This document shows positions 2,561 to 59,700 of a DNA stretch of 64,000 nucleotides, one piece after another. Every line of letters starts with the position of its first letter. Position 1 is the first letter of the stretch. A program made the position numbers and the translations under genes. The notes under the pieces were generated by a model. It was not told the origin of the DNA and searched no databases. It worked only from the letters and a program-made list of their open reading frames with translations. The stretch covers positions 576,001 through 640,000 of the forward strand of contig CAWEYL010000001.1 in the NCBI GenBank assembly GCA_963813335.1. The letters run 5' to 3'. Source of the stretch: an uncultured Chloroflexia bacterium (GTDB taxonomy: Bacteria; Chloroflexota; Limnocylindria; Limnocylindrales; CSP1-4).

Positions 2561-5500
2561 GTGACGACCCTCGCCCCGAACGACTTCACGCACCTCCACG
2601 TGCACTCCGAGTTCAGCCTGCTCGACGGGCTGGGGCGGATCACGGACCTGGTCGACGCGGCGGCCCACCAGGGCATGGATTCGATGGCGCTGACCGACCA
2701 CGGGGCGCTCTACGGCGCCGTCGCGTTCTACCAGGCGGCGAAGACCAAGGGCATCAAGCCGATCATCGGCATCGAGACCTACGTCGCCCGCCGCTCGATG
2801 ACCGACAAGGAGGGCAAGGCCGACAGCCAGCCCTTCCACCTGATCCTCCTCGCCCAGGACTGGCAGGGCTACCAGAACCTCTGCCGGCTCGCGACCGACG
2901 CCCACCTCGACGGCTACTACTACAAGCCGCGCATCGACCGCGACCATCTCGCCAAGCACAGCGCCGGACTGATCGGGCTGTCGGCCTGCCTGAGCGGCGA
3001 GGTCGCCAAGGCCCTCGAGGTCGATGACTGGGAGCTCGCCCGGACCGTCGCGGGCCAGTACGGCGACATCTTCGGCAAGGACCGCTTCTTCCTCGAGCTC
3101 CAGGACCACGGCCTGCCCGAGCAGCGGCGGCTCAACGAGCAGCTGCTCCGACTCGCCCCCGAGGCCGGGCTGCCGCTGGTCGTCACCAACGACCTCCACT
3201 ACGTCCGCCAGGACCAGTCCGAGGCGCACGACGTGCTGCTCTGCGTGGGCACCGGCAACAACCTCGACACGCCCAACCGCATGAAGTTCGACAGCGCCGA
3301 GTTCTACGTGAAGTCGGCGGCGCAGATGGCGGCGCTCTTCCCGGACCACCTCGACGCGATCCGCAACAGCCGGCGCATCGCCGAGATGACCGACCTCTCG
3401 CTGCCGCTCGGCCAGTTGCGCATCCCGCACTTCCCGGTGCCTGACGGGTTCACCACCGAGACCTGGCTTCGCGCCGAGTGCCAGCGCGGCCTCGAGCGCC
3501 GCTACGGGACGGTCACGCCGGCGCTCCAGGAGCGGCTCGACTACGAGCTGGGCGTGATCCTCTCGATGGGCTACGCCGGCTACTTCCTCATCGTGGCCGA
3601 CTTCATCGCGTTCGCCCGCGAGCAGGGGATCCAGACGACCTGCCGGGGCAGCGCGCCGGGCAGCATCGTGACCTACACGCTCGGCATCACGCCGGTGGAC
3701 CCGATCCTCTACCAGCTGCCGTTCGAGCGCTTCCTCAACCCGGACCGCGTGACGATGCCCGACATCGACGTGGACTTCGAGGACGGCCGCCGCGATGAGG
3801 TCATCGCCTACGTCGGGCGCAAGTACGGCCAGGACCACGTCGCCCAGATCATCACGTTCGGCACGATGCTGGCCCGGGCCGCCATCCGCGACGTCGGCCG
3901 CGTCCTCGGGCAACACCTACGGCGAGGTGGACCGGATCGCCAAGGCGATCCCGAACCAGCTCGGCATCCGGCTCGACGAGGCGCTCGCAGGTCGCGCCCG
4001 CGCTGCGCGAGCAGGTCGATGCCGACCCGGGGGTCAAGCGGATCATCGACTTCGCCCGCCAGCTCGAGGGCGTGGCGCGGAACGCCTCGACCCATGCCGC
4101 CGGCGTCGTCATCAGCCGCGAGCCGCTGACCGAGCTGATGCCGCTCCAGAAGGCGACCAACTCGGACGGGCTGATGACCCAGTACGAGATGCACGCGATC
4201 GAGGCGCTCGGGCTGCTCAAGTTCGACTTCCTCGGGCTCTCGAACCTGACGATCCTGCGCCAGGCGGTCGACATCGTCCGCGCCGAGCGCGGCACCGTCA
4301 TCGACCTCGACGAGATCCCGCTCGACGACGCGACGACCTTCGAGCTGCTCGCCTCCGGCGAGACGACCGGCATCTTCCAGCTGGAGTCGGCGGGGATGCG
4401 CCGCTACATCCGCGAGCTCCGGCCGACGTCGGTCTACGACCTGGCCGCCATGGTCGCGCTCTACCGGCCCGGCCCGATGGACAACATCCCCGCCTACATC
4501 CGGCGCAAGCACGGGCAGGAGCCGGTGACCTACCTCCACCCGCTCCTCGAGCCGTACCTGGAGAAGACCTACGGGATCTTCGTCTACCAGGAGGACATCA
4601 TGTCCGCGGCCATGGCCCTCGGCGGGTTCACCGGCCCGGAGGCGGACACGCTCGGCTACGCGATCCGCAAGAAGAAGTCCGCGGTGCTGCGCGCCCAGAA
4701 GGAGAAGTTCGTCACCCAGGCCGCCGAGCGGGGGGTCGCGCCGGCGGTGATCGACGCGGTCTTCACCGCCTTCGAGCCGTTCGAGCGCTACGGGTTCAAC
4801 AAGGCGCACGCCACCTGCTACGGCCTGATCGCCTACCAGACGGCGTACCTCAAGGCGAACTACACGGTCGAGTACATGACGGCGGTCCTCACCGCATTCC
4901 GCTCGAACGAGGAGAAGGTGGCCGCCGCGGTCGCCGAATGCCGGCGGATGGGCATCGAGGTCCTGCCGCCCGACGTCGTGACCAGCCATCTCGAGTTCAC
5001 GGTCGAGGGCGACGCGATCCGCTTCGGCCTGCTGGCGGTCAAGAACGTCGGCCAGGGCGCCATCGAATCGATCATCGCGGCGCGCGAGGAGGGCGGGCCG
5101 TTCCGCTCGCTGACCGACTTCTGCACCCGCATCGACCTGCGGCTGTGCAACCGCAAGGTGCTCGAGGCGCTGATCAAGGTCGGCGCGCTCGACTCGATGG
5201 GCCACGCGGCCCAGCTCCTGCTCGGGCTCGACGACGCGATCGGCGCGGCCCAGGCGACCCAGCGCGACCGGATCACCGGCCAGACGTCCCTCTTCGACAT
5301 GACGGTGGCCGACGCCGAGGTCTTCGAGCGGCCGCTGCCCGTCGCCACCGAGGTCCCGATGCGGGAGCGGCTGCGCTGGGAGAAGGAGCTCCTCGGGCTG
5401 TACCTCTCGGAGCACCCGATGGGCGAGGTCGCCGAGCAGGTCGGGCGGTACGTCAACGCCTACTCGGGCGACCTCAAGGACGAGTCGCTCGACGGCCAGC

Positions 5501-6419
5501 GGATCGTCGTCGGCGGGATCGTCACCGGCGTCCGGACGGTCGTCACCAAGCGCAACGACACGATGGCGATCGTGACCATCGAGGACCTCCAGGGGACGAT
5601 CGAGGTGGTCGTCTTCCCGCGCCTCTACGAGACCAGCCGCGCCGACCTGGCGCGACGGCGCGATCCTGCTCATCGCCGGCCGCGTCGACCATCGCGGCGA
5701 GGAGGCCTCGGTGCTCGCGGACCTCGTGCAGGACTGGGACGAGGCGGTCACGCTGGGTCCCGAGGCGTTCGCCCGGGACGTCGCCGCGGGCGACCGTGGC
5801 TCGCGTGGCCGGGCCGGCCAACGGCCGAAACGGGAACGGGAACGGCAACGGCGCGCCACGGCCCATGGTGGCCGTCGGCCCTGGCGCCGCGGCGGTGCCG
5901 GTCGTCGCCGGCGTCGGCGTGGAGCCGCCCGCCGTCGCGTTCGTCTCGCCGCTCCGGGTCGACATGGCGCCGCCGATGTCAGGGGCGTCCGGGATCTCCG
6001 CGCTGCCGCCGATCGCCCCGGCCGAACCGGTCTCCGCCTACGTCGAGGCCGACAGTGTCGCGGCGCTCGCCCCCGACCGCGACCAGGAGCCCGCGGTGCC
6101 CGACGAGGCCCGCGAGCGCATCGTGGCCGCCGCGACCGACGACGCGCCGCTCGACGCCGGTCCGGACTCGATCCTGCACGTGCGGTTCGCGGGGTCGGCC
6201 GGCTCGGAGCGCGTGGTCTCCGCGATGGAGCTGGTCAAGACGCTGTTGCGCGACCGACCCGGTGCCACGCGCGTGGTGATCCACGTTCCGGCGAGCGGGG
6301 CGGGGGAGGCCCTCCCCATGGAGCTGCGGCGGGGCGTCGCCTACGACGCCGAGCTGCTCGCGGAAGTGCACCGCCGCCTGGGCGACGGCCTGGTGGAGCT
6401 GCGCCTGGCCCAGGCCTGA
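2561..6419 (+). CDS. dnaE: DNA polymerase III alpha subunit (frameshifted in this sequence near 3910, 3990, 5640, 5810)
   Basis: PHP HLHVHSEFSLLDG/TDHG/TNDLHY; RGSAPGS; catalytic MPDIDVDF; KFDFLGL; YGFNKAH; OB fold; C-terminal domain. Confidence 0.97.
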
Positions 6420-7083: not shown

Positions 7084-7531
7084 CTACCGCTTCAGGATGT
7101 CGGACACGTCGGGCTCCGGACCGCGCCAGCGGACCACCTCCTCGGTCGCGAAGCGCCCGTAGTAGTTGACGAAGTGCGCCTCGTGGCGCTCGAGGATCGG
7201 ACTGCGCGGCCGCCTTGGGCGCGTCGCCGCGCACGCGGACCATGACGACCGCCCGGCCGTCGCGCAGCGCCCACTCGTACCAGGCGAAATCGACGAGCTG
7301 GTCCATCAAGGTGAATTCCAGCGCCCGCCGGAGGCGGCCGATCAGGCCGGACACGCTGCCGGTCCCGTCCATCCGGTCCGCGCCCGCCTCGCCTCGCAGC
7401 ACCTCGAGGTCCTTCGTCGCGATCCCGCTCGCCTTCAGCTCGGCCATCGCCGCGGCGGCCGCGGTCGGATCGTCGATGACGGCGAGCAGGCGGTTCGTGG
7501 GGTAGTCGATCGAGCGTCCGGTGGACGTCAC
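7084..7531 (-). CDS. hypothetical protein (frameshift near 7200)
   Basis: YPTNRLLAVIDD...ILERHEAHFVNYYGRFATEE; GTG start at 7531, TAG at 7084. Confidence 0.65.
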
Positions 7532-7558
7532 GGGTGGATCCTCGGGTGCCGGCGGGCG

Positions 7559-7645
7559 TGGTCCCGGAGGAGGGAGTCGAACCCTCATGCCCTTGCGGGC
7601 GGCCGATTTTGAGTCGGCTGCGTATGCCATTCCGCCACTCCGGGC
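7559..7645 (-). tRNA. tRNA-Leu(CAA)
   Basis: GCCCGGA/TCCGGGA acceptor stem, anticodon arm GCCGA-CTCAAAA-TCGGC, long variable arm, TTCGA, CCA end. Confidence 0.95.
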
Positions 7646-9538: not shown

Positions 9539-12498
9539 ATGGACCGCCTGATGCTGCTCGACGGCAACGGGCTCATCTACCGCGGATATTTCGCGCTCCC
9601 GCCGCTGACGACGTCGAAGGGCGAGCTCGTGAACGCGGTCTTCGGGTTCTGCAGCATCGTCCTGCGCGGGATCCAGGACATCCGCCCGGACTACGTCGCG
9701 GTCGCCTTCGACCTGCCCGGCCCGACCTTCCGCCACGAGCAGTACGCCGAGTACAAGGCCACCCGCCAGCGCATGCCGGACGACCTGCGCGACCAGTTCC
9801 CCAAGGTCCGCGAGGTCGTCAAGGCCCTGCGCATCCCGGTCTACGAGCTGGCCGGCTACGAGGCCGATGACGTCATCGGGACGATCACCGTCGACGCGGA
9901 ACGGCGCGGCCTCGACACGACGATCGTGACCGGCGACCTCGACATGCTCCAGCTGGTCACGGACCACACGCGCCTGATGACGACCCGGTCCGGCGTCGAG
10001 AACACGATCCTCTACGACCCGGCGAAGATCTTCGACCGCTTCGAGCTGGTGCCCGGGCCAGATGATCGACTACAAGGCCCTCAAGGGCGACCCGACCGAC
10101 AACATCCCGGGCGTGCCCGGCGTCGGCGAGAAGACCGCGGCGAAGCTGATCCGCGAGTTCGGCACGCTCGACGCGCTGTACGAGCGGATCGACGAGGTCA
10201 AGCCCGACAAGCTGCGCGAGAAGCTCGTCGAGCACCGCGAGTCGGTGTTCATGGGCCGCGACCTCTCGACGATCGTCCGCGACCTGCCCGGTCGAGTTCG
10301 ACCTCGAGGCGGCCCGCCTCGGCGACTACGACCGCGAGACCGTCATCCGGCTCTTCCGCGAGTACGAGTTCCGCTCGCTGATCGAGCGCCTGCCGGCGAT
10401 GACCGGCGAGACGGCCGGCGACGCGGCCGAGGCGCTGCGCAGCGTGGCATCCGACGGCTCGGTCCCGGCGGCCCGGGTCGCCGGCGCGGCCCGTCCCGCC
10501 GGCTGGGGTTCGGCCCGCCCGGTCGCGCCGCCGTCGGAAGGCGGCGGACTCCAGCTCTCGCTCGATTTCGATGCCGTCGCGCGGCCCGCCGCGCCCGCGG
10601 CTCCCGCGGTCGATGCCGCGGCCGAGGTCGCCGCCCAGCCGGCCCGCCCCGCCGTCGAGGTCGACCCGGGCGACCTGCCCACCGCGCTGGCCGCGGCGAT
10701 CGCCGACCCGAGCCGGATCGAGGTCCACGCGGGGCGAGGGGATCGCCGCCCTGGAGCCGTGGCTGGCCGCCCAGCCGGCCGTCGGCGTCGGGCTGCTGCT
10801 CGACGACCCGCGACCGCGGCGCGGCGCGCCGGTCGCCCTCGCGCTCGCGGGCGCGGACGGCCGGACGATCGCGGTGGAAGGCCCGGCGGACGCCGCGGCG
10901 CTGCGGCTCGCTGCTCGAACGGCTGGCCATCCCCGTCGTCGCCCACGAGGTCAAGCCGCTGCTCGTGGCCCGGATCGGCGACGACCTCGACGCGCCCGCC
11001 GACCCCGGTCGCGTTCGACACCCAGATCGCGGCGTACATCCTCAATGCGTCGCTGCGGAGCCAGTCCATCTCGGACGTCGTCGCGGAGCAGCTCGACCTG
11101 ATCCTGCCGCCGGTCGCGGAGCTCGACAACCTGGCCCGGGCCGGTCTCGAGGCGCTCTCCGCGATCGCCGTCCGCGAGCCGCTGGAGCGGCGCCTCCGCG
11201 ACGAGGGCCTCGACCGCCTGTACGCGGAGATCGAGCTGCCGCTGATCGCCGTCCTCGCGCGGATGGAGGCGACCGGCGTCGCACTCGACCTCGACGCGCT
11301 CGCATTGCTCGCCACGGAGTTCGGTGCCGAGATCTCCCGACTCGAGGCCGAGATCTACGCGGACGTCGGCCACGAGTTCAACCTCGGCAGCCCCAAGCAG
11401 CTCGAGCAGATCCTCTTCTACGAGCTGAACCTGCCGAAGGGCAAGCGGACGAAGACCGGGTACTCGACGGACGCCTCGGTGCTCGAGGACCTGCGCCCCG
11501 CCCACCCGATGATCGACAAGCTGCTCGAGTGGCGGACCTACACGAAGCTGCGCTCGACCTACGTCGAGGCGCTGCCGTCGCTGCTCGCGTCGGACGGGCG
11601 GCTGCACACGACCTTCCACCAGGCCGTGGCCGCCACCGGGCGGCTGTCCTCGTCGGATCCGAACCTCCAGAACATCCCGATCCGGACGCCGCTCGGGCGG
11701 CGCATCCGCCGGGCGTTCGTGGCCGGCGCGCCGGACCTCACGCTCGTGGCCGCCGACTACAGCCAGATCGAGCTGCGGATCCTCGCCCACGTGTCGGGAG
11801 ACGAGCACCTGCGCGACGCGTTCGCGCGTGGCGCCGACATCCACCGCGAGACGGCGGCCCGCGTGCTCCACAAGGACCCTGCGGACGTGACGCTCGGCGA
11901 GCGCTCGATGGCCAAGATGGTCAACTTCGGCATCGCCTACGGGATGAGCGACTTCGGGCTGTCGAGCCGGGCCAACATCCCGCGCGCCGAGGCGCAGGAC
12001 TTCATCAACACCTATTTCGCGACCTATTCCGGGATCTCCTACTACATGCTCGCGATCAAGGAGCAGGCGCGGACCCAGGGCTACGTCACGACGCTGCTCG
12101 GACGCAAGCGCCACATCCCCGAGCTGGCGGCGCGCAACCCGACGCTGCGCGCGGCGGGGGAGCGGATGGCCATCAACATGCCGATCCAGGGGACCGCGGC
12201 CGACATCGTCAAGATCGCGATGATCCGCCTCGACGAGCGACTGCGCGACGGCGGGTTCCGGGCGCGGCCGCTGCTCCAGGTCCACGACGAGCTGCTGCTC
12301 GAGGTGCCACGGGCCGAGGTCGACCGGCTCGTGCCGGTCCTCCGCGAGACGATGGAGAGCGCCCTCCCGCTCGACGTCCCGCTGACCGTCGACGTGAAGG
12401 TCGGCGACGACTGGGATTCGATGACGCCGCTGACGCGTGCCGACGCGATCGCGGCCGAGGCGGCCGAGGCGCCCGACATCGCGCTCCCGATCGCCTGA
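9539..12498 (+). CDS. polA: DNA polymerase I (several indels)
   Basis: LLDGN, YEADDVIGT, GDPTDNIPGVPGVGEKTA, TGRLSSSDPNLQNIP, ADYSQIELR, LQVHDEL. Confidence 0.97.
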
Positions 12499-12516: not shown

Positions 12517-13565
12517 ATGCCCGAACTCCCGGAGGTCGAGACCGTCGTCCGCGACCTGCGACCCCACCTGGTCGGCGCCACGATCACCGGTGCCCGCAGC
12601 TCCTGGGGGCGGACGCTCAAGACGCATGACGGCGACGCATTCGCCGCGGCGATCGACGGGACGGCGCGTCGAAGGCGGTCAGCCGGCGCGCGAAGCAGAT
12701 CGTCGTCGAGCTGTCGGGCGACGCCGCGATGACCATCCATCTCAAGATGACCGGCCAGCTGTTCGTGGTGCCGGCCGGCGCCGCGGAGGACCCGTACATC
12801 CGGCTGGTCCTGGAGCTGGCCGACGGGCGCGAGCTGCGGTTCCGCGACATCCGCAAGTTCGGGAAGATCGGGCTGTACGGGCGCGACCCCGTCACCGGCG
12901 AGCTGGTCACGGAGGTCGGCGGTGCCGCGCTGTTCGCGCAGATCGGCCCGGAGCCGCTGGACCCGGCGTTCACGCTGCGCGACTTCCGGCGGCGCATCCG
13001 ACGCCGCTCCGGGCGGCTCAAGCCACTCCTCCTCGACCAGTCGTTCATCGCGGGCGTCGGCAACATCTACGCCGACGAGGCGCTGTGGCAGGCGCGGCTC
13101 CATCCGCTCCGCACGGCCCCGACCCTCCGGCCAGCGGACGAGCGGCACCTGTTCGACGCCGTCCGCTCGATCCTGACCGAGGCGGTCGAGCGCCGCGGCT
13201 CCTCGATCGACGACTACACGGCGCCGGACGGCGACGGCTCGATGCAGGAGCACCTCAACGTCTACCAGCGGACCGGCGAGCCGTGCCCGCGCTGCGGCCG
13301 GCCGATCAAGCGCATCGTCATCGGGGCGCGGAGCACCCACTTCTGCTCGTGGTGCCAGCGGCTGCCGGCGAGCGATCGCGCCGGCGCCAGGGCGATCCTG
13401 CGCGGGATGACCGGCGGCGTGCGGCGGACCGGCCCGCGCTGGTCGGACCTGACGGATCGGACGAAGCAGGCCGCGGCCACGCGGCGAGCGGCGGCACGGC
13501 GAGCGGCCGGATCCGCGCCGGGACTCTGCGGTCCCGCCGGTGCCCGCGACGGCTGGAAACCGCTG

Positions 13566-13566
<1 letters not shown>
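12517..13566 (+). CDS. mutM: formamidopyrimidine-DNA glycosylase (indels)
   Basis: N-terminal PELPEVE, HLKMTG, GVGNIYADE, CPRC..CSWC zinc finger; probable TGA overlapping the ATG of the next gene. Confidence 0.93.
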
Positions 13567-15612
<2,046 letters not shown>

Positions 15613-15727: not shown

Positions 15728-18421
15728 ATGCCGGGATCGGTCCGCTCGAATGGGGCGCTGGAAAGCCACGTGCGTGCAGCTCGACTCGCCGCGATCGTCC
15801 GGCCCGTGAGATCGCGATCCCAGCAGTTCGTCGCCGGGACATCCGGCTCGACGAGGGTCTGGCTCTTCACGGCGTTCCTCGCTGCGATCGCGGCTGCGCT
15901 CGCGGTGCGGTTCGTCCCGTCCGAGCCTCCCCTCGACATTCCCATCGAGATCCCAGTGTGGCTGCTCGCCGGCGGGTTCTACCTGGCCGAGGCGAAGGTC
16001 ATCCACCTCCACATCGGGCGCAGCGCGCACTCGTTCTCGATGAGCGAGTTGCCGCTTGTCGCCGGACTCTTCCTCATCTCCCCACCGGCGTTCATCGTCG
16101 CGCGCGTCGTCGGTTCCGGCCTGGCACTCGCCTTCCACCGCCGCCAGCGCTCGGTCAAGCTCGCCTTCAACCTCGTCCAGTTCAGCCTGGCCTCGGTGGT
16201 CTCGGTCGCGATCATCCACCTCGCGATCGCACCGGACGCCGTGTTCGGGCCGGCGGTCTGGCTCGCCGTCCTGATGGTGGCGCTCGTCGAGAACGTCATC
16301 GGCGTCCTGGCGGTCAGCACCGCGATCTCCCTGGCCGAGGGAACGGCCCAGTACCGACGGATCCCCGAGATGCTCAAGATCGGGATCGTCGTCTCGCTGA
16401 CGAACGCGAGCATCGGCCTGATGGGCCTTACGGTGATCCTGTCGAACCCGGAGTCGGTCTGGCTCTTCGTCCTGCCGACGGTGACCGCGACCCTGGCGTA
16501 CCGCGCCTACATCTCCGAACGGCAACAGCACGAGAGCATCGAGCTGCTCTACGAGTCGACCCGCATCCTCCAGCGCAGCCCGCAGCTGGACACCGCCCTC
16601 GTCTCGCTGCTCGACCACGCCCGGAAGATGTTCCGGGCGGACGTCGCCGAGATCCGCCTCCTGCCGCGACACGAGGGCGACGACATCCTTCGGTGCCAGG
16701 TCGGACCGGGCGAAGCGGTGGAGGTGATGCAGCCGGTCAGGCCGGCGCTCGACGATGCCGTCCTCGAGCGCGCCGTCACCGAACGACATGGGCGCATCGT
16801 CGATCTGCCGGTCGACGCGGAGATCGACGGGGCAGGACGCCGGCGCGTCCGGAAGGCCCTCGTCGCCCCACTGCTGGGAGAGTCGACGCTCATCGGCACG
16901 CTACTGATCTCCGACCCCCTCAACGACATCAGCACGTTCGAGGCGGAGGATCTCAAGCTCTTCGAGACGCTGGCGAATCACACCGCGATCGCGCTCGAGA
17001 ACGGACAGCTGGAGCAGTCGCTCGAACAGCTCGGCCGGCTCAAGGAAGAGCTGCACCATCAGGCATCGCACGACCCGCTCACGGGGTTGGCGAACCGGTC
17101 GCTCTTCACCCAGGTCGTCGCCTCGCGCCTCGAGGCGCGGGACCCCGGCGGCACGGTGCCGATCGTCCTGTTCGTGGACCTCGACGACTTCAAGCTGGTC
17201 AACGACAGCCTCGGGCATGCCGCGGGCGACGCACTCCTGGTCGCGGTCGGCGACCGCCTTCACTCCGTGCTGCGCACCACCGACATGGCGGCCCGCCTCG
17301 GCGGTGACGAGTTCGCCGTGCTCCTGCGCGACACGCCGGACATGAAGGCGTCGATGCGCGTGGCGAACCGGCTGACGGCCGCCATGGGCCCACTCTTCGA
17401 GATCGAAGGTCGCGACGTCAACGTGCGGGCGAGCGTCGGCGTGGCGGCGGGCCGGCCGGGCGTCGAGACCGCGGGCGACCTGTTGCGCAACGCCGACGTC
17501 GCGATGTACTCGGCGAAGGCTCGCGGCAAGGGTCGCGTCGTCGTCTTCGAGCCGTCGATGCATGACGCGGTGATGGCGCGCGCCCAGCTGTCGGCAGACC
17601 TCGAACATGCGATCGCCGCCCGCGAGTTCGTGCTCCAATACCAACCCATCGTCGAGATCGCGACGGGTCGCATGGTCGGCGTCGAGGCGCTCGTGCGCTG
17701 GGAGCACCCGGAACGCGGCAGGATCGGCCCCGACGACTTCATCCGGGTGGCCGAGGAATCCGACTCGATCCTCGAGATCGGGCGCTGGGTGCTGAGCCAG
17801 GCGTGCCAGCAGCGGCATGCCTGGCAGCGAACCGTCGGTTCGGAGCCATTCACCGTGAGCGTGAACATCTCTGCCAGACAGCTGGTGCAGCCCGATTTCG
17901 TCGACGAGGTGCTGACGATCATCCGCGAGGCCGGCGTCGAACCGACGGACATCGTCCTGGAGATGACGGAGACGTCGATGCTCCAGGACAGCGCGGCGAC
18001 TCGCTCGAAGCTGCAGGACCTCCGCGATGTCGGGGTCGGTGTCTCGATCGACGACTTCGGCACCGGCTACTCGTCGCTGAGCTACCTCCAGCGATTCCCG
18101 GTGACGACGCTCAAGATCGCCCGGGACTTCGTCGACGTCGACGGCGTCGAGGCGGACGCCTGGGAGCTCGCCAATGCGATCGTGGCGCTGGGCCGCGCCC
18201 TCCGGCTGTCGGTCATCGCCGAGGGCGTGGAGCAGTGGTCGCAGCTCGGCCGGCTCCGGACGCTCGGCTGCGAGTTCGCCCAGGGCTTCTACTTCGCTCG
18301 ACCGCTCGACCCAGCCTCGATCGAATCGCTGCTCGTTCATGGCAGGGTCCTGAGCGGAGACCCGGACATCGACCCGGCGTTGCCCGTCCGGGCACCGGGT
18401 CGCGCCGTCGAGGCCGGCTGA
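15728..18421 (+). CDS. membrane sensor-GAF-GGDEF-EAL diguanylate cyclase/phosphodiesterase
   Basis: About 7 N-terminal TM helices, GAF-like region, HDPLTGLANR, RTTD I-site 5 aa before GGDEF, EALVRW, DDFGTGYSS, AEGVE, QGFYF. Confidence 0.95.
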   Translation: MPGSVRSNGALESHVRAARLAAIVRPVRSRSQQFVAGTSGSTRVWLFTAFLAAIAAALAVRFVPSEPPLDIPIEIPVWLLAGGFYLAEAKVIHLHIGRSAHSFSMSELPLVAGLFLISPPAFIVARVVGSGLALAFHRRQRSVKLAFNLVQFSLASVVSVAIIHLAIAPDAVFGPAVWLAVLMVALVENVIGVLAVSTAISLAEGTAQYRRIPEMLKIGIVVSLTNASIGLMGLTVILSNPESVWLFVLPTVTATLAYRAYISERQQHESIELLYESTRILQRSPQLDTALVSLLDHARKMFRADVAEIRLLPRHEGDDILRCQVGPGEAVEVMQPVRPALDDAVLERAVTERHGRIVDLPVDAEIDGAGRRRVRKALVAPLLGESTLIGTLLISDPLNDISTFEAEDLKLFETLANHTAIALENGQLEQSLEQLGRLKEELHHQASHDPLTGLANRSLFTQVVASRLEARDPGGTVPIVLFVDLDDFKLVNDSLGHAAGDALLVAVGDRLHSVLRTTDMAARLGGDEFAVLLRDTPDMKASMRVANRLTAAMGPLFEIEGRDVNVRASVGVAAGRPGVETAGDLLRNADVAMYSAKARGKGRVVVFEPSMHDAVMARAQLSADLEHAIAAREFVLQYQPIVEIATGRMVGVEALVRWEHPERGRIGPDDFIRVAEESDSILEIGRWVLSQACQQRHAWQRTVGSEPFTVSVNISARQLVQPDFVDEVLTIIREAGVEPTDIVLEMTETSMLQDSAATRSKLQDLRDVGVGVSIDDFGTGYSSLSYLQRFPVTTLKIARDFVDVDGVEADAWELANAIVALGRALRLSVIAEGVEQWSQLGRLRTLGCEFAQGFYFARPLDPASIESLLVHGRVLSGDPDIDPALPVRAPGRAVEAG

Positions 18422-18558
18422 CCGCCGGCCCGAGACTCGCCCGCCGGCAACTCCGGTTCCGGCGGGCACCGAATAGGACCATCGTCCTATTGGCCCGTGG
18501 GCCGCCGTCTCGCATCGTCGCGGCAGATGACGGCATCCGCATGGGTGCCGCTGGTACG

Positions 18559-18649
18559 GTCTGCAAACTCGGCAAACCCGTCGAGAGGCGGGGACGCAAA
18601 GCCAGGGATCTTCCGGAGACCGCCTCCGAAGACCGCCCGGTTGCCAGGC
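18559..18649 (+). ncRNA. c-di-GMP-I (GEMM) riboswitch
   Basis: GGCAAACCCGTC-GAGA-GGCGGGGACGCAAAGCC core with GNRA loop, 3' CGGTTGCC, P1 GTCTG/CAGGC; G at the G20-equivalent position; 5' of the S8 gene. Confidence 0.88.
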
Positions 18650-18682
18650 ACCGCACATCGACCCGACCAGAGGGTGGTATCG

Positions 18683-20276
18683 ATGATGCAGGTGGATCGT
18701 CCCGATGGGGGCAGCGCCTCCCCGACGCGCCCTCGCGCAGACCGCGGCTGGAGCCTCGATCTCACAGCGTCAGGTCGCCTCGCCGCGTCCCTCGCCGCTG
18801 TCCTCGTCGCCGCGGCCATCGCGCCCGTCGCCGCCCTCGCGTCCGGCTACGACCCGGCCGACGACGCGAACTCGATGTACAACACGACCGCGTACACCGG
18901 TGCCACGGCGTGGTGGAACGCCGGCTACACCGGCGCGGGCGTCGACGTCGCCCTCATCGACACCGGGGTCAGCCCGGTCCAGGGTCTCGCGACGCCGGGC
19001 AAGATCATCTACGGCCCGGACCTGTCACTCGAGTCCCAGTCGCCGGAGCTGAAGAACCTCGACACGAACGGCCACGGGACGTTCATGGCCGGGCTCATCG
19101 CCGGCAAGGACGGCGACCTCACGGAGCCGTATGCCGGACGCCCCGGCGTCGGCCTACCGGGGGATGGCTCCAGATGCCCGGATCGTGTCGGTCAAGGTCG
19201 GCGTCGCCGACGGTGGGACGGACGTCAGCCAGGTCATCGCCGCGATCGACTGGGTCGTCCAGCACAAGGACGACAACGGCCTGAACATCCGGGTCATCAA
19301 CCTGTCGTACGGGACGAACACGCACGCAGGCCTCCGCGGTCGACCCGCTCGCGTACGCCGCCGAGCAGGCCTGGAAGGCCGGCATCTTCGTCGTCGCCGC
19401 CGGCGGCAACAACGGCTACCAGAGCCGCAGGAGCCAGGCCCCGGCCCTGGCGAACCCGGCCATGGACCGCTACCTCATGGCGGTCGGCTCGTCGGACTCG
19501 ATGGGAACCACCACCGTGGAGGACGACCGGGTGCCGGCGTTCTCGCCCTGGCCGAGGCGCGGGACCGCGCGGAGCGTCGACCTCGTCGCCCCGGGGGTGC
19601 ACATCCAGGGGCTGCGCGTCCCGAACAGCTTCATCGACATGAACCACTCGGGGGGCCAGCTCGACGGACCGCTACTTCCGCGGCAGCGGGACGTCCGAGT
19701 CGGCGGCGATCGTCTCGGGTGCCGCGGCGTTGCTCCTCCAGAAGTACCCGACCGCCACACCCGACCGGATCAAGGCACTGCTCTCGCGCACCGCCTACGA
19801 CATCAACGGGCCGTCGCAGGCCATCGGCGGCGGCGAGCTGCAACTCGGGGAGGCCCTGACCACGGCCCTTCCGCACTCGACCCAGACCTGGCCCTCCTCG
19901 ACCGGCACGGGCTCGCTCGAAGCCGCCCGCGGCGATGATCACCTGACGCTCGACGGCGTCGTGCTGACCGGCGAGCAGGACATCTTCGGAGCGGCGTTCG
20001 ACTCGGAGGCGATGGCCCAGCTCGAGGCTGACGGCAGCAGCTGGTCCGGTGGGACGTGGAACGGCAACTCCTGGTCTGGCAGCAGCTGGTCGGGCAGCTC
20101 GTGGAGCGGCAGTTCCTGGTCTGGCAGCAGCTGGTCGGGCAGCTCGTGGTCCGGTTCGAGCTGGTCCGGCGAACTCCTGGTCCGGTTCGAGCTGGAGCGG
20201 CAGCTCCTGGTCGGGCAGCAGCTGGAGCGGAAGCTCCTGGTCGGGCGACAGCTGGTCCGGGGCGGACTGGGAGTAG
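18683..20276 (+). CDS. secreted S8 (subtilisin-like) serine peptidase with C-terminal GxxWx repeats (indels near 19135, 19325, 19668, 20171)
   Basis: Signal-like LAASLAAVLVAAAIAPVAALA; triad VALIDTG / GHGTFMAG / GSGTSESAAIVSG; INLSYG, AAGGN. Confidence 0.92.
20033..20273 (+). repeat. 16 x 15-bp coding repeat (GSSWS pentapeptide)
   Basis: GSSWS GGTWN GNSWS (GSSWS)6 GNSWS (GSSWS)4 GDSWS GADWE, then stop; one extra G at ~20171. Confidence 0.95.
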
Positions 20277-20336: not shown

Positions 20337-20966
20337 GTGACCCGGAGTGCCGCGAACCGCCGCGCTGGACCGCTCCGCCTCGGACTGACAGGACCGATCG
20401 GCTGCGGGAAGTCGACGTGGCCGGATGGCTCGGCGAGCGACCCGGGTGTCGTCGTCATCGACGCGGACGACGTCGTGCGCGGCATCGTCGAGCCGGGTAC
20501 CCCGACGCTCGACGACATCGTCAAGCGATTCGGTCGGGAGGCGCTGGCCGAGGATGGGACGCTCGACCGGGCGAGGCTCGGTCGGATCGTCTTCGGCGAT
20601 GCCACGGCGCTGGCCGACCTCGAGGCGATCACCGGACCGCCGGCACGGGCGCGGATCATGCGGGCGATCGAGGACGCCGAGTCGCACGGCGCCACTGGCG
20701 TGGTCATCGAAGCGATCCGATTGCTCGATGGCGGGTTGGCGACCGCCTGCGACGAGGTCTGGCTCGTCACCTGCGATCCATGGGTCCAGGTCGAGCGCCT
20801 GGCAGGACGGGGGACCGACCCGGAAGACGCTGCCCGCCGCATCGAGGCGCAAGCCGGACTGGTGGAACGGGTCCGGCCGGCTGCCACGCGGGTCATCGAC
20901 ACCTCGGGATCGGTCGAAGCGACGAGGGCCGACGTCGACGCCGCGTTCGATGCGGCCGTTCGCTGA
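20337..20966 (+). CDS. coaE: dephospho-CoA kinase
   Basis: GLTGPIGCGKST, IDAD, LDRARLGRIVF, EAIRLL. Confidence 0.9.
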   Translation: MTRSAANRRAGPLRLGLTGPIGCGKSTWPDGSASDPGVVVIDADDVVRGIVEPGTPTLDDIVKRFGREALAEDGTLDRARLGRIVFGDATALADLEAITGPPARARIMRAIEDAESHGATGVVIEAIRLLDGGLATACDEVWLVTCDPWVQVERLAGRGTDPEDAARRIEAQAGLVERVRPAATRVIDTSGSVEATRADVDAAFDAAVR

Positions 20967-25733: not shown

Positions 25734-28022
25734 CTAGTGCTTGAACTTGACCTCGACGGTCATCCAGTTGCCCTGCTGGGCGAGGACCCGGATGGTCGTC
25801 CCGGTGTTCGGCACCGGCACGCTGGACCACCCGAAGTTGCCGATCGCGGCATTCGGGGCGACCCAGTAGCTCACGCTGTCGTCGAAGACGGGGTTGGCCG
25901 GGAGCCCCCCGTAGGTCTTGGCCACGCTGTTGAGGTGCAGCGTGATCTTGTCGGTCTTCTGCAGCCCGAACGTCGAGTCGTAGGACTGGATGCGCGGGCG
26001 CCAGACCTTGCCATCCGGGCGGATGAGCAGGTTCGGGTGGGCATCCACCGGCAGGAAGAACCCACCGCAGTTGCCCGCAAGGCAGTAGTCGCCGACGTTG
26101 TTGTCGGGATGCGAGTAGTCGAGGTACCAGACGAGGAGCCCGTTCTGGTAGGGGAAGTGCTCGACCCAGTTGCCCAGGGCGGGGTTGTCGAGGAAGCCGA
26201 AGTTGTACGGGCCGGTCTTCAGGGACTGGTCGTAGCCCCAGTAGACGCGGTTCTCCGCGATGTAGTAGTTCTCGTAGGCCTGGGTGATCGACTGGGTGAC
26301 ATTGGCGAACCCATCGAAGGTCCACGCCGGGGCGCCCGCTTCGGCGCCATCGGTGGGATTGCCGGTGATGGCGATGTCGTCGATCAGCGCGCCCTTGGGG
26401 GCGACGCCGCCGTCGGTGATGTACTCGAAGGCGAGACTGACCGTCTGGCCGGCGTAGGCGCTCAGGTCCGCGTGGAGCGGGACGTAGACGCCGCCGCTCG
26501 TGTCCGTGATCCCTTCATTGAAGCCGGGGTCGGACAGGTTGGTGTGGACCGGGGTGCCGTTGACGGTCAGGTACAGGTAGTCGTAGCCCGTCTCGATGTC
26601 GTAGTTGATGAACGCATCCAGGCTGACCGTGCCAGCGGGGAGCGTCACGGACCTCGTCATCGAGTTGTCGAGGTTGTTCCCCGACCCGGAGTAGTACTGG
26701 TGCGTGCCGCTATGCGGTGCGCCGATGTCGGTCGTCACCTCCTTCGGCGGAAGCGTGACCACCAGCTGCTGGGTCTTGGTGGTGTTGTACTCGGCCGGGC
26801 CCATGTGGACCCGGGTCTTCGGTGCGCCGTAGCCGACGATCTCGTAGTTCGACCAGCCGAGGAAGAGCTTTTCGTAGGCGCTCATGTGGACCGGCTCGGT
26901 GCCGATGCCGTCCTTGGGCTTGCCGCTCGAGCCGTACGAGCCGCTCGAGTACAGGGTCCAGAAGCCGGTCGAGTTCTCGGCACCACCGGTGTTGCCGCTG
27001 GTGTCGTAGAGGTCCGGCAGGCCGAGGTCGTGGCCGAACTCATGCGAGAAGACGCCGACGCCGCCGTCCTCGGGCTCGACGGTGTAGTCGCCGATCCATA
27101 CGTTCGAGTCGCCGATCTTGACGCCACCGAGCAGGTTGCCGGCCGGACCGGCGGACCCGATGAGGTTGTAGAAGGCGTACCAGCGGTGGCTCCAGATGGC
27201 GTCCTCGCCCTGGGCGCCGCCGCCGGTCTCCTCGCCGGAGCCGGCGTGGATGGCCTGGAAGTGGTCGATGTAGCCGTCAGGCTCGTTGAAGTTGCCGTCG
27301 CCGTCGTAGTCGTACCGATCCCACTTGTCGAACTGCGACAGGTAGGCGGCGATCTCGGCCGGCGTCTTGCCGGCGGCCACCTGGCCGGCGTACCAGGCGT
27401 TGACCTCGTCCTGGACGAAGCGCCAGACGGTGGAGCAGACGATGTCGCCGCACGCGTTGGTCCCGTAGCGGGCCTCGTTGTACGGGACGGTGACCCAGTC
27501 CTCTACGGTGCCGTTCACCGTGTAGCGGCCGGACGACTGCTCGAGGTAGAAGTCGCGCATCGAGACGGCGTTCTTCTTGTTGCTGAACAGCAGGCTCGTG
27601 TAGTAGGCCTGGTTGAAGTCGGACGCCCAGATGCTGGTGTTGTCGACCGAGCGGTCCGGGGCCGGGATCTGGTTGTGCACCGGGCCGGTCGTGCCGCCGT
27701 AGGACGGGTGGACCGTGTCGCCGAACTGGCCAAGGACCGTCCAGATCGTGTCTTCGCCCTGGCGATCGAGTTCCACGAACTTGCCGCGGCGGACCTGGAC
27801 GACTCCGTTGTGTCCGTGCTTGTCGAGGTGGCCGGACAGGTAGCCCTGCAGGCCCTGTGCGCGAAGCGCGGACTGCTCGGATCCGAGCGGATGGGGCATG
27901 TCGTCGACCGGCATCGAATCCGGCGTGGCCGGCGGAGCCTTGGGCTTGGCCGCGAAGGCGGTGCCAGCCGTGAGCGAGAGCAGCATGGTTAGGGTCGTCA
28001 CGACGACCAGGAGTTTCCTCAA
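25734..28022 (-). CDS. immune inhibitor A-like M6 metalloprotease, secreted
   Basis: TTG start after GAGGAGG; signal peptide; EPDGYIDHF, HAG, IWSHRW, HEFGHDLGLPDLYD, YSGSGN domain. Confidence 0.93.
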   Translation of the reverse strand: MRKLLVVVTTLTMLLSLTAGTAFAAKPKAPPATPDSMPVDDMPHPLGSEQSALRAQGLQGYLSGHLDKHGHNGVVQVRRGKFVELDRQGEDTIWTVLGQFGDTVHPSYGGTTGPVHNQIPAPDRSVDNTSIWASDFNQAYYTSLLFSNKKNAVSMRDFYLEQSSGRYTVNGTVEDWVTVPYNEARYGTNACGDIVCSTVWRFVQDEVNAWYAGQVAAGKTPAEIAAYLSQFDKWDRYDYDGDGNFNEPDGYIDHFQAIHAGSGEETGGGAQGEDAIWSHRWYAFYNLIGSAGPAGNLLGGVKIGDSNVWIGDYTVEPEDGGVGVFSHEFGHDLGLPDLYDTSGNTGGAENSTGFWTLYSSGSYGSSGKPKDGIGTEPVHMSAYEKLFLGWSNYEIVGYGAPKTRVHMGPAEYNTTKTQQLVVTLPPKEVTTDIGAPHSGTHQYYSGSGNNLDNSMTRSVTLPAGTVSLDAFINYDIETGYDYLYLTVNGTPVHTNLSDPGFNEGITDTSGGVYVPLHADLSAYAGQTVSLAFEYITDGGVAPKGALIDDIAITGNPTDGAEAGAPAWTFDGFANVTQSITQAYENYYIAENRVYWGYDQSLKTGPYNFGFLDNPALGNWVEHFPYQNGLLVWYLDYSHPDNNVGDYCLAGNCGGFFLPVDAHPNLLIRPDGKVWRPRIQSYDSTFGLQKTDKITLHLNSVAKTYGGLPANPVFDDSVSYWVAPNAAIGNFGWSSVPVPNTGTTIRVLAQQGNWMTVEVKFKH

Positions 28023-28283
28023 GACCGATCCCTCCTCAATGGGCATGTCGAGGCTGATGGGCGCGGGCGTGAGACAGCCAGAGACACCTCCTTCGGCGGC
28101 TGTCGGAGCCTGGGGCAAAGGGGTTGCGAGCACTCTCCCGTGTGCTGCGCGCTGGGCGCCAACCATAGCCCGGCCGCAGGCCGCCTCGCAACCCGGCGAC
28201 GGAGCGTCTGGCTTCGGAGCGTTGCCCGGACGCACCGGACTTCTGGCCCCGGGCCGCAGAACCCCACCGGTCGCCGCCGTCAA

Positions 28284-28295
28284 GAACACCTGTTC
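28284..28295 (+). promoter_or_regulatory. LexA (SOS) box upstream of uvrA
   Basis: GAACACCTGTTC = GAAC-N4-GTTC, about 30 bp before the GTG. Confidence 0.8.
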
Positions 28296-28325
28296 CATAT
28301 GACGGCAGTCCGCTACACTGGGGCC

Positions 28326-31397
<3,072 letters not shown>

Positions 31398-55613: not shown

Positions 55614-55700
55614 GCCGAGGTGGCGGAACTGGTAGACGCGCTAGCTTCAGGAGCTAGTGTCCGCAAGGGCGTATGGGTTCAAATCCCTTCCTCGGTACCA
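55614..55700 (+). tRNA. tRNA-Leu(CAG)
   Basis: Anticodon arm CTAGC-TTCAGGA-GCTAG, long variable arm, CCA. Confidence 0.95.
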
Positions 55701-55734
55701 ACCCCTCCGTGATGGACCCGAGCCCGGTGCACCT

Positions 55735-55819
55735 GCCCAGGTGGCGGAATTGGTATACGCGTACGTTTGAGGGGCGTATGAGGCAACTCATCCGGGTTCA
55801 AGTCCCGGCCTGGGCACCA
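55735..55819 (+). tRNA. tRNA-Leu(GAG)
   Basis: Anticodon arm TACGT-TTGAGGG-GCGTA, long variable arm, CCA. Confidence 0.95.
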
Positions 55820-55872
55820 ACCTTCGAGCGACCTGACGACCGTCCCACGCGGACGGTCGTCATACTGTCCGC

Positions 55873-55949
55873 GGGCGGTTAGCTCAGAGGGTCAGAGCGC
55901 CCCGTTTACACCGGGGAGGTCACTGGTTCGATCCCAGTACCGCCCACCA
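55873..55949 (+). tRNA. tRNA-Val(TAC)
   Basis: Anticodon arm CCCCG-TTTACAC-CGGGG, TTCGA, CCA. Confidence 0.95.
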
Positions 55950-56045
55950 GTCCCGCGCATGGCCCGACGGTCGGCGCGCGGGACGCGTCCTGCTAGACTC
56001 GATGGCGACGGTCGCCGCCCCAGGACGGCCTGATGGAGGACACGG

Positions 56046-56615
56046 ATGAACTGGCCCCTGATCATCATCATCGCGATCGTCGTCATCCTGGTCGTCGGGC
56101 TGATCGCGCTCTACAACGGCCTCGTGCAGCGGCGCCTGCGCGTCGACGAGGCGTTCGCCCAGATCGAGGTCCAGCTCAAGCGCCGCCACGACCTGATCCC
56201 GAACCTCGTCAACGCCGTGAAGGGCTACATGGGGTTCGAGCAGAAGGTCCTGACCGACGTCACCAACGCCCGGGCCAACGCCGTGGCCGCCGGGGCCCAG
56301 GGCCCCGCCCAGCAGGCCGCCGCCGAGAACGCCCTGACCAGCACGCTCCGCTCGCTCTTCGCCACGGTCGAGAACTACCCCGAGCTGAAGGCGAACGAGA
56401 ACGTCCTCTCGCTCCAGGAGCAGCTGACCACGACCGAGAACCAGATCTCGTTCTCGCGCCAGCACTACAACGCCAGCGTGCTCGACTACAACACCAGCAT
56501 CGCCACCTTCCCGAGCGTCCTGATCGCCGGGATCTTCGGCTTCGTCAAGCGCGAGTTCTTCGACGCCGAGCCCGAGGCCCAGACGGTCCCGAACGTCGAC
56601 CTGACGCTGGGCTGA
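56046..56615 (+). CDS. lemA: LemA family protein
   Basis: YNGLV, QLKRRHDLIPNLV, ENYPELKAN, TENQI..SRQ.YN. Confidence 0.95.
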   Translation: MNWPLIIIIAIVVILVVGLIALYNGLVQRRLRVDEAFAQIEVQLKRRHDLIPNLVNAVKGYMGFEQKVLTDVTNARANAVAAGAQGPAQQAAAENALTSTLRSLFATVENYPELKANENVLSLQEQLTTTENQISFSRQHYNASVLDYNTSIATFPSVLIAGIFGFVKREFFDAEPEAQTVPNVDLTLG

Positions 56616-56637
56616 CCGCCCGCTCGCGGGAGACCCG

Positions 56638-57624: not shown

Positions 57625-57720
57625 CGCGTCCCGGGCGCCTGGCCGCCTCCGGCGTCGGCCCGGCTGCTCGTGGTATCCTGCCCACCGCCGACGGACAGCC
57701 CCAGGCTGGTTGGCCATCGG

Positions 57721-57796
57721 GCCGAGATAGCTCAGTTGGTAGAGCACGCGACTGAAAATCGCGGTGTCGCCAGTTCGAATCTGGCTCTCGGCACCA
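57721..57796 (+). tRNA. tRNA-Phe(GAA)
   Basis: CGCGA-CTGAAAA-TCGCG, 76 nt, CCA. Confidence 0.96.
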
Positions 57797-57820
57797 CCGC
57801 TCGCGGTGGTCGCGCTCCGG

Positions 57821-57896
57821 GCGGAAGTGGCTCAGTTGGTAGAGCATCACCTTGCCAAGGTGAGGGTCGCGGGTTCGAGTCCCGTCTTCCGCTCCA
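57821..57896 (+). tRNA. tRNA-Gly(GCC)
   Basis: TCACC-TTGCCAA-GGTGA, 76 nt, CCA. Confidence 0.96.
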
Positions 57897-58086
57897 ACCC
57901 CCTCGTCGTCGACCCTCGTTCGCCGCGCCCCGTGCCGTGGACGGGCTCCTCGGGCGTCCCGGCTGCGCGGTTCGTGGCGCATGGCACTTGTGAAACGCAG
58001 CCAGGACGACGACGATTCGATACGAACGGCGTCGGTGACCACCGAGCCTTCGCCCGGGTCACGGCCGTCGAAGTCGCCGAGACTCG

Positions 58087-59408: not shown

Positions 59409-59529
59409 GACCGACGCCGCACGCTTGACAGGAACCGGCAGCGCGCCACACCCTAGACACACGGAATTGGCATTCGAGCCGGTGCCCGGAGCACGGATGA
59501 CAGCCTGCAGAGGCGAGTCGGAGACGGGG

Positions 59530-59576
59530 CCTCGCCACGGTGAGGCTCATGGGTTCGAGTCGCGTCGTCCGCTCCA
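59530..59576 (+). repeat. degenerate copy of the tRNA-Gly 3' half (att-like remnant)
   Basis: 40/47 identical to 57850..57896 by manual alignment. Confidence 0.8.
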
Positions 59577-59598
59577 TCCCTCCCTCGAAGGTCCCCGC

Positions 59599-59672: not shown

Positions 59673-59700
59673 GACAACCCGGGACGGCCCGGGCGATCGC

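Follow-up and report, generated by a model that had tools for sequence, protein, structure and literature searches.

A mobile gene pair of a tailed subtilase and a membrane sensor with a cyclic di-GMP-type aptamer: a probable signalling module shared by Chloroflexota and Actinomycetota

The stretch analysed here comprises 64,000 nucleotides (nt) of contig CAWEYL010000001.1 (positions 576,001 to 640,000; assembly GCA_963813335.1) from an uncultured soil bacterium of the Limnocylindrales and is referred to as the window. At 15728–20276 it contains a block of three co-oriented elements: a gene encoding a membrane-bound enzyme of cyclic di-GMP (c-di-GMP) turnover, hereafter the sensor, an aptamer of the class I c-di-GMP riboswitches (c-di-GMP-I), and a gene encoding an S8 protease (subtilase) with a tryptophan-repeat tail. 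This block is a mobile cassette. Its two genes are co-inherited in Chloroflexota as well as Actinomycetota, and three arrangements of them occur. What stays constant beside the protease is the N-terminal membrane domain of the sensor (N-domain), and the output module attached to this domain is interchangeable. The block is best explained as a mobile signalling module that consists of two genes and includes an RNA switch, in which protease and membrane domain cooperate and c-di-GMP feeds back, a reading to which we assign a rough probability of 0.6. The elements of the block are the following.

15728–18421 (+), membrane sensor enzyme gene, an intact open reading frame (ORF) of 897 amino acids (aa) with an N-terminal multi-pass domain, GAF, GGDEF and EAL (ORF list, Pfam)
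15845–16582 (+), N-terminal membrane domain (hydropathy profile and alignment of 20 homologues)
16586–17002 (+), GAF domain, residues 287–425 (Pfam GAF_3, 1.1e-09)
17063–17533 (+), GGDEF domain, residues 446–602 (Pfam PF00990, 8.5e-42)
17597–18304 (+), EAL domain, residues 624–859 (Pfam PF00563, 1.8e-71)
18557–18653 (+), c-di-GMP-I aptamer with outer P1 extension (Rfam RF01051 match at 18561–18648; CGGU.CUG pairs with CAG..ACCG)
18654–18698 (+), expression platform with the Shine-Dalgarno-like sequence GAGGGUGG (18671–18679) and the start codon ATG at 18683
18683–20276 (+), S8 protease gene starting with the ATG at 18683 (Pfam Peptidase_S8 on four pieces; intact orthologues in loci L002, L003, and L005)
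20033–20273 (+), C-terminal tail of 16 units of the G-x-S-W-S type with Trp at every fifth residue, reaching the last residues of the protein (translations)

The mobility of the block is evident from its insertion site, which is bordered by two genes.

13533–15600 (+), ABC-F ATPase gene, left border of the cassette (Pfam ABC_tran and ABC_tran_Xtn; frame-broken twice)
20337–20966 (+), coaE, encoding dephospho-CoA kinase, right border of the cassette (Pfam CoaE, 6.9e-35; follows the S8 gene in L002–L004)

In all five congeners tested (completeness at least 91%), the ABC-F gene is directly followed by coaE, with approximately 100–300 nt between the matched stretches, and because of this empty site the block is identified as a cassette. 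The same site between ABC-F and coaE is filled in L002–L004, and in congener G009 the block is present with no coaE behind it. The first-pass annotation had proposed an accessory cassette that includes the ABC-F gene; the cassette itself stands, and ABC-F has to be assigned to the backbone, being present in 5/5 congeners. The gene order polA, mutM, ABC-F, sensor, aptamer, protease, coaE, and uvrB is common only to the nearest loci. In an even draw of the phylum, the protease was found in 7 of 201 genomes at an expectation value (E) of at most 1e-90, a threshold that misses the window's own genome due to its split copy of the S8 gene. Between the two phyla, the protease is 54–69% identical, which is high for such a distance and would fit a transfer of the module.

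Linkage of tailed S8 proteases to membrane sensors had been set beforehand as a test of the first-pass annotation, and its outcome was positive. A scan of one genome per species yielded at least 523 relatives, of which the best 80 were taken and 79 loci kept. According to the record titles, 27 of these are labelled as Chloroflexota/Limnocylindria, 50 as Actinomycetota (Actinomycetes, Thermoleophilia/Gaiellaceae, and Acidimicrobiia), and two carry other labels. Using profile hidden Markov models of the N-domain, a homologue of this domain, one per locus, was detected as the direct neighbour of the protease in 67 of the 79 loci. The gaps between the matched stretches range from 19 to 684 nt, with an overlap in one frame-broken locus. 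Since the 2.54 Mb of the window's own genome contain 17 GGDEF matches, we estimate the chance of adjacency within 1 kb to be on the order of 1%. Among the 12 loci in which no sensor was found, seven are truncated within a few bases of the protease gene or start within an EAL fragment. Any third gene family (ORFs of at least 110 aa) is limited to at most 11 of the 79 loci.

Neither the arrangement of the two genes nor the output of the sensor is constant among these loci. The sensor precedes the protease in 21 loci, as in the window, follows it in 43, and is divergently oriented in three. A GAF-GGDEF-EAL output was observed in 60 loci and a PAS-HisKA-HATPase (histidine kinase) output in five, in three of which the neighbouring ORFs start 8–132 nt behind the protease; in two loci the N-domain occurs alone. 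One of the latter is cut by the contig end, and the other (L039, 9678–10772, + strand) encodes a stand-alone N-domain of 365 aa directly behind the protease, followed by an unrelated helix-hairpin-helix protein. N-domains of kinases and cyclases are homologous (hhalign probability 99.2%, E 9.8e-20, 208 columns). In 54 neighbour ORFs, the GGDEF domain lies in a single frame, and its motif is intact in every one of them. As independent evidence of the linkage count the three gene orders, the three types of output, and the two classes of aptamer. Tandem subtilase genes were observed in L086 (6115–7854 and 8001–9509, no sensor beside them) and in L041 (from approximately 824 onward and 4117–5643).

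The two aptamer classes were recognised by different searches. A covariance model built from five genus-level aptamers and searched against the 79 loci detected a class I aptamer directly upstream of the protease, on the same strand, in 28 loci, namely 26 of the 27 Chloroflexota-labelled loci and both oddly labelled ones, with none among the 50 Actinomycetota-labelled loci. An Rfam scan recognised a c-di-GMP-II-GAG aptamer in L038 and L056, in both cases shortly before the protease, and a partial match to the same family (40.1 bits) lies between sensor and protease in L042. Taken together, c-di-GMP-class aptamers are situated just upstream of the protease in 31 of the 79 loci (28 of class I and three of class II-GAG), which bears out the expectation that such riboswitches occur near tailed S8 genes. 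The fold of class II aptamers is unrelated to that of class I, and two non-homologous aptamer classes ahead of the same protease family provide independent evidence that the protease is an output of c-di-GMP. To our knowledge, the ligand of the c-di-GMP-II-GAG variant has not been established, and a literature search by title and abstract found no paper on it. In L056, a guanidine-I riboswitch is located on the opposite strand (7438–7556, − strand), approximately 220 nt from the c-di-GMP-II-GAG aptamer.

In the window, the aptamer between sensor and protease was recognised over the full length of the model (positions 1–87) with 66.1 bits compared to a gathering score of 35 (E 1e-10 in the 64-kb window), in agreement with the first-pass annotation, and it is the only c-di-GMP-I match in the whole assembly. 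Among the 28 class I aptamer sequences, compensatory changes on both sides were observed at 7 of 17 consensus pairs. The outer P1 extension changes in step between clades, from ACCG/CGGU to GCCG/CGGC. Congeners of the window's organism carry aptamers of the c-di-GMP-I-GGC family (RF03167, 63–65 bits) at loci unrelated to the protease; these occur as pairs approximately 500 nt apart in L006 (998–1075 and 1501–1578, − strand) and L007 (1004–1083 and 1492–1571, + strand), and as single copies in L008–L010.

A start codon preceded by a Shine-Dalgarno-like sequence is located 27–33 nt behind the aptamer model in all 24 loci scored. This distance between aptamer and AUG is too short for a terminator, and the platform between aptamer and start codon in the window contains no U-run; control of the protease by the riboswitch would best be placed at the level of translation. 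What begins at this AUG differs between clades. It starts the protease itself in the window's clade; in a second clade, it starts a long extension at the N-terminus of the protease, and in a third a leader ORF of 23–35 codons. In 10 of 10 loci of one clade, the TGA of the leader ORF overlaps the ATG of the protease as cgATGa, a signature of translational coupling as judged from the sequence, so that the leader-ORF variant appears to be a natural case of riboswitch control relayed by translational coupling.

In 27 of 27 minimum-energy folds, the AUG is paired with a CAU following P1. The RNAalifold consensus did not include the expression platform, and the 11 public runs found contained no RNA run. 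An ON switch, in which the 3' strand of P1 extends the start-codon hairpin, was considered, as the pairing occurs in 27 of 27 folds, and was dropped since shuffled 9-mers stabilise the hairpin to the same extent. In most cases, the pairing of the AUG is not raised above chance by the controls, so that the folds would be compatible with an ON as well as an OFF switch, and the feedback loop may accordingly take either shape. Of the proposed control of protease expression by a c-di-GMP loop, the riboswitch upstream of the protease has been found.

The sensor looks like a bifunctional c-di-GMP enzyme with GGDEF and EAL behind a GAF domain. As annotated in the first pass, the motifs GGDEF, RxxD, EAL, and DDFGTG are intact, and all of them were located in the 897-aa ORF. 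The GGDEF domain match is accompanied by a GG[DE]EF motif (GGDEF at 17300–17314, residue 525) and, five residues ahead of it, by an RTTD I-site (RxxD; 17273–17284, residue 516), as expected for a GGDEF diguanylate cyclase. The EAL domain match likewise holds all motifs listed for an EAL phosphodiesterase, that is EAL, N, ExxE, DDFGTG, EGVE, and QG at residues 653, 713, 745, 775, 832, and 852, with EAL at 17684–17692, DDFGTG at 18050–18067, and EGVE at 18221–18232. NCBIfam matches of the sensor are confined to residues 376–871, i.e., to the GAF/GGDEF/EAL part.

For the first 285 residues of the sensor, no Pfam or NCBIfam family was matched, even at E up to 10. The hydropathy profile and the alignment of 20 homologues, a crude approach that involves no topology predictor, indicate approximately eight hydrophobic segments with short outer loops, and the initial count of about seven transmembrane segments is corrected accordingly. 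Conserved polar residues of the N-domain (E, H, H, S, E, R, K, and FN) are located in or near the membrane and in inferred cytoplasmic loops. Neither a periplasmic domain nor a HAMP domain was found in the sensor by Pfam and hydropathy profile. The suggestion of a MASE-type domain is weakly supported among relatives and fails for the window protein itself: MASE9 (PF20972) gave no match for the latter at E up to 10, a search of its own genome matched at another place only, and weak matches were obtained for 8 of 20 N-domain relatives (best E 7.7e-5), two of which, scanned singly, reached 17.4 and 16.8 bits compared to a cut-off of 24.3. Membrane-only input domains on c-di-GMP enzymes are very common, and almost none has a known signal. 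The faithful partner of this N-domain, an exported and uniquely tailed protease, provides a testable candidate for what such a domain responds to.

The protease carries an N-terminal hydrophobic, signal-like segment ending in ALA|SG (18833–18847). Its four matching pieces cover profile positions 1–68, 75–122, 133–211, and 229–288 of Peptidase_S8 (PF00082), and the catalytic triad of the S8 family is present in the contexts DTG (18959–18967), HGT (19073–19081), and GTSES (19688–19702); the intact orthologue of L005 matches Peptidase_S8 at 1.7e-39. The triad and the 16 repeats are thus as first described, and the single continuous ORF expected for them is in the window distributed over five frames (see below). 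A conserved motif, GWS(L/I)D(F/L), is located just ahead of the signal-like segment in Chloroflexota clades (18740–18760 in the window) and lies within five residues of the initiator Met of the protease in the leader-ORF clade. A second large secreted protease is encoded nearby, an InhA-like M6 metalloprotease of 910 aa (Peptidase_M6, MAM, and VEG; 25734–28466, − strand) 5.5 kb downstream.

With the intact orthologue of the closest congener as query, a protein search returned 7,922 of 8,000 scored proteins at E of at most 1e-3, which makes this a large protease family, from barely studied soil Chloroflexota and Actinomycetota. A tail with Trp at every fifth position terminates all 120 best homologues (60–100% identity, 465–666 aa). 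Exactly 16 repeats, the commonest number, occur in 47 of these 120 proteins and 14–18 repeats in 102. The first units of the tail (SWSGGxWNG) and a preceding linker of approximately 50 residues are conserved among homologues, and no recurring residue between units, distinct from the unit itself, was seen in the tails of homologues as a possible cleavage mark. No Pfam family, including Pentapeptide (PF00805), was matched at E up to 10 by the tails of L002 and L005 or by the 124-aa C-terminal piece. In the ESM Atlas, the clusters nearest to residues 400–524 are unnamed “hypothetical proteins” of 95–145 aa with no family. AlphaFold2 models were unusable both for the whole protease (12 sequences, mean pLDDT, i.e., predicted local distance difference test, 38.2) and for the C-terminal 124 residues (29 sequences, mean pLDDT 38.7, tail below 35). 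A complex prediction of the N-domain with linker and tail scored 0.00 in two runs; its controls were not folded, so that it is evidence neither way. A contig of run X3, one of four public soil runs considered below, goes back 90 positions over 20062–20151, with 15 other letters in between; in this single contig of low depth (2.4), the pattern would correspond to a tail with extra units and hints at variation of the repeat number in the population.

In the signalling module that we favour, protease and membrane domain would cooperate on the outer side of the membrane. The Trp-rich tail would keep the protease at the membrane surface, where the protease would work with the membrane domain and either alter what the N-domain senses in or at the membrane or dock on the N-domain. 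The response of the sensor to this protease-linked input would be c-di-GMP turnover or, for the kinase versions, phosphorylation. In the window's lineage, c-di-GMP would feed back on the protease via the riboswitch at translation initiation, in one clade through the leader ORF of 23–35 codons whose stop overlaps the protease ATG, and could turn the protease either on or off. The tail is the obvious candidate for a contact or tether, because it is C-terminal, Trp-rich, and of fixed length and because its presumed partner has no extramembrane part that could receive a globular domain.

Several observations weigh against this signalling module. All 79 loci are contigs of metagenome-assembled genomes, and a cultured carrier was not identified. 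Because of the kinship among these loci, the count of 67 in 79 is an overestimate of independent events, and five loci with sufficient flanking sequence lack a sensor (L030, L057, L060, L065, and L086). With the models used, no aptamer was detected in 47 of the 50 Actinomycetota-labelled loci. Where a class I aptamer is present, membership in the Rfam family c-di-GMP-I alone does not exclude a related dinucleotide as ligand, and the window's own genome contains many other GGDEF genes, so that the neighbouring enzyme need not supply the c-di-GMP for the aptamer. In 8 of 12 cases, the start-codon hairpin does not surpass shuffled sequence in stability (z-scores −1.25 to +0.77, compared to −2.2 to −2.8 in the other four), and in the window's clade its stability does not exceed that of shuffled controls. 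Competition by the 3' strand of P1 differs little from that by shuffled 9-mers (mean −5.9 versus −5.3 kcal/mol), with 0 of 27 sequences beyond the level of 5 in 100 shuffles. Finally, both tail models are unusable (pLDDT 38.2 and 38.7), and it is from composition and position that a membrane tether is suggested.

A possible, if unlikely, alternative is mere co-regulation, with the protease being an ordinary c-di-GMP-controlled enzyme of surface or matrix remodelling whose neighbour tunes c-di-GMP locally and has no sensory or physical link to it. The 31 loci (of 79) with a riboswitch ahead of the protease and the intact catalytic motifs of the neighbour are consistent with such a role, for which the protease ZmpI/PPEP-1 provides a precedent as a secreted protease whose gene, according to the available part of the source (PMC6366702), is negatively regulated by a class I riboswitch. 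However, the same N-domain is kept when the output is a histidine kinase (five loci) or absent (L039), the pair survives three different gene orders, and it is also kept in the 47 Actinomycetota-labelled loci with no detected aptamer. Mere co-regulation is disfavoured because it is the N-domain that stays constant.

A more specific version of the signalling module, which we consider doubtful, makes the Trp tail itself the physical link. The tail would insert at the membrane interface and be read there by the loop-less sensor, and the state of the protease (substrate-engaged, tail-cleaved, or released) would set c-di-GMP turnover or kinase activity. If true, this would constitute a bacterial “protease-coupled receptor” made up of two proteins, a module that has passed between phyla and for which two unrelated riboswitch classes were recruited to close a feedback loop.

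Peptides cut from the tail had been suggested as the signal in the first-pass annotation. The tail would then be a multi-copy precursor from which the protease cuts its own (GxSWS)n peptides, a diffusible or membrane-partitioning signal that the sensor reads in a quorum-like loop. Tail and sensor are genetically linked as this idea predicts, and a Trp-rich amphipathic ligand is conceivable for a sensor whose outer loops are all small and that has conserved polar residues within the membrane; for MASE9, binding of ligands within the membrane has been proposed (bioRxiv 10.1101/2021.11.05.467447, in the part available). The repeat number held near 16 (exactly 16 in 47 of 120 homologues, 14–18 in 102), the conserved first units and linker, and the missing cleavage mark between units in the tails of homologues argue indirectly against a precursor. 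No support for such peptides was obtained, and we regard the precursor as improbable, weakly disfavoured because a repeat number near 16 is a better fit to a domain of fixed size.

Inside-out control in the manner of LapD and LapG, by which a membrane GGDEF/EAL protein binds c-di-GMP and thereby holds or releases a surface protease, appears very improbable. It would account for the adjacency of a membrane GGDEF/EAL protein and a secreted protease, and a generic NCBIfam similarity to LapD was observed, confined to the GGDEF-EAL part and far below the cut-off (1.6e-39). The mechanism is disfavoured because partners with a kinase output, or with none, do not fit a c-di-GMP receptor and because, in the window as well as in the family at large, GGDEF, I-site, EAL, and DDFGTG are intact, whereas the domains of LapD are reportedly degenerate. 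Moreover, no periplasmic domain or HAMP was found, and the protease is a serine protease of family S8 and not a LapG-type cysteine protease.

The S8 gene of the window is split over five frame pieces (frames 1, 2, 0, 1, and 2), as the result of one extra base at each of four positions. Alignment to the orthologues of three congeners (L002, L003, and L005), which are single ORFs encoding 524–540 aa, places these bases near 19136, 19322, 19666, and 20171. Near-identical sequence is found in contigs of four public soil runs (X1–X4), all from one study, to which the source sample may itself belong. Wherever these contigs match closely, one base is missing at 19134, 19321, 19669, and 20168.

19134–19136 (+), assembly insertion 1, one extra base (alignment of relatives; base absent in contigs of X1, X2, and X4)
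19321–19322 (+), assembly insertion 2 (alignment of relatives; base absent in X1, X2, and X3)
19666–19669 (+), assembly insertion 3 (alignment of relatives; base absent in X1 and X2)
20168–20171 (+), assembly insertion 4, within the repeat tail (alignment of relatives; base absent in X1–X4)

Neighbouring genes are broken likewise. The domains of polA are spread over three frames (9539–10381, 10062 onward, and 10399–12498; two breaks), and with the short-read contig L026 as ruler, one frame switch was located in mutM (near 12665) and two in the ABC-F gene (near 13790 and 15400), with no frame break in the sensor gene and coaE. The four breaks of the S8 gene are assembly errors and not decay, and the gene is intact in nature, because the soil-run contigs lack the extra bases and because polA, mutM, and ABC-F are affected in the same way. 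A decaying pseudogene, and with it a dead circuit in this organism, is practically untenable and was dropped as an explanation of the four frame breaks, given that each is a single extra base that as many as four public runs lack in their near-identical contigs, that the essential neighbour polA as well as mutM and ABC-F are broken alike, and that the S8 pieces are still 50–93% identical to the one-frame orthologue of L026. From position 9539 of the window to the end of the S8 gene, nine insertions or deletions in both directions were counted in approximately 11 kb. This corresponds to about one per 1–2 kb in the stretch examined, and apparent pseudogenes are not trustworthy in this assembly. 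The source assembly comprises 2.54 Mb in seven contigs with a completeness of 81%, and the G+C content is 71% across the 64-kb window. Seven tRNA genes in two clusters on the + strand (55614–59774) and one on the − strand (7562–7644) are ordinary.

Taken singly, aptamer, GGDEF/EAL enzyme, and S8 fold are all unremarkable representatives of their families. A literature search, with most subscription journals outside its reach, returned no paper on the protease-sensor pair, on the tail, or on a riboswitch on a subtilase; this fits the earlier statement that no characterised system has this layout, and the protease-sensor signalling pair is best regarded as uncharacterised. New in the window are the wiring of a class I riboswitch with three start-codon arrangements, joined by a second aptamer class in Actinomycetota-labelled loci, the proof of a cassette by its empty site, and the demonstration that an apparent pseudogene is an assembly artefact.

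Among known systems, the protease is matched best in NCBIfam by mycosin (TIGR03921, 6.3e-37; mycosin structures PDB 4J94 and 4KG7). Mycosin (MycP) is the exported subtilase of type VII secretion; it has no classical propeptide and is anchored at the membrane by its C-terminus, beside a membrane complex. The protease of the window differs in its Trp-repeat tail, which takes the place of a transmembrane helix, and in its score of 127.5 bits, far below the cut-off of 278.75, which leaves it outside this family; in addition, no ESX genes recur in the 79 loci. The nearest solved relative of the catalytic domain among the chains listed is Tk-SP of Thermococcus kodakarensis (PDB 3AFG, E 1.4e-27; 9UES, E 6.3e-28; query residues 68–370). 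The similarity concerns the subtilisin-like catalytic domain; in all 45 solved chains among the matches listed, the best-scoring stretch ends no later than query residue 398, which leaves the tail uncovered. The tail itself resembles pentapeptide-repeat proteins (PF00805) in its strict period of five residues and in the small residue located two positions ahead of a large hydrophobic residue, and its approximately 16 units would correspond to four turns of the four-sided β-helix of that family. It differs in having Trp at the centre position, in giving no match to PF00805 at E up to 10, and in yielding no confident AlphaFold2 fold.

As for the sensor, the LapD-LapG system of Pseudomonas fluorescens is similar in that a membrane GGDEF/EAL protein is reportedly coupled in function to an extracytoplasmic protease. 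In that system, LapD serves as a c-di-GMP receptor that is degenerate and has a periplasmic domain, and LapG is a cysteine protease. In contrast, the module described here has intact motifs, no periplasmic domain, an S8 protease, and an output that can be a kinase, which sets it apart from that system. The nearest membrane domain described so far is MASE9 (PF20972), which was defined by Galperin and Chou and for which ligand binding inside the membrane has been proposed in the available part of their description (bioRxiv 10.1101/2021.11.05.467447). As far as the crude hydropathy profile goes, the N-domain would share with it approximately eight segments, short and poorly conserved outer loops, and intramembrane polar residues, and both are fused promiscuously to GGDEF-EAL and other outputs. 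The domain of the window, however, does not match PF20972, its relatives (8 of 20) match it weakly and below the cut-off of 24.3 bits, and a link to a protease gene is not mentioned in that part of the description.

With respect to the RNA switch, the counterpart is ZmpI/PPEP-1 of Clostridioides difficile, a zinc metalloprotease with known adhesin substrates that, according to the available part of the source, is under negative control of a class I c-di-GMP riboswitch (PMC6366702). Both systems have a c-di-GMP-I aptamer ahead of a gene for a secreted protease, by which the second messenger sets, or in the window would set, the level of the protease. As far as that part of the source goes, the cassette described here differs in that its protease is an S8 subtilase with a Trp-repeat tail and that it is tied to one particular membrane sensor gene.

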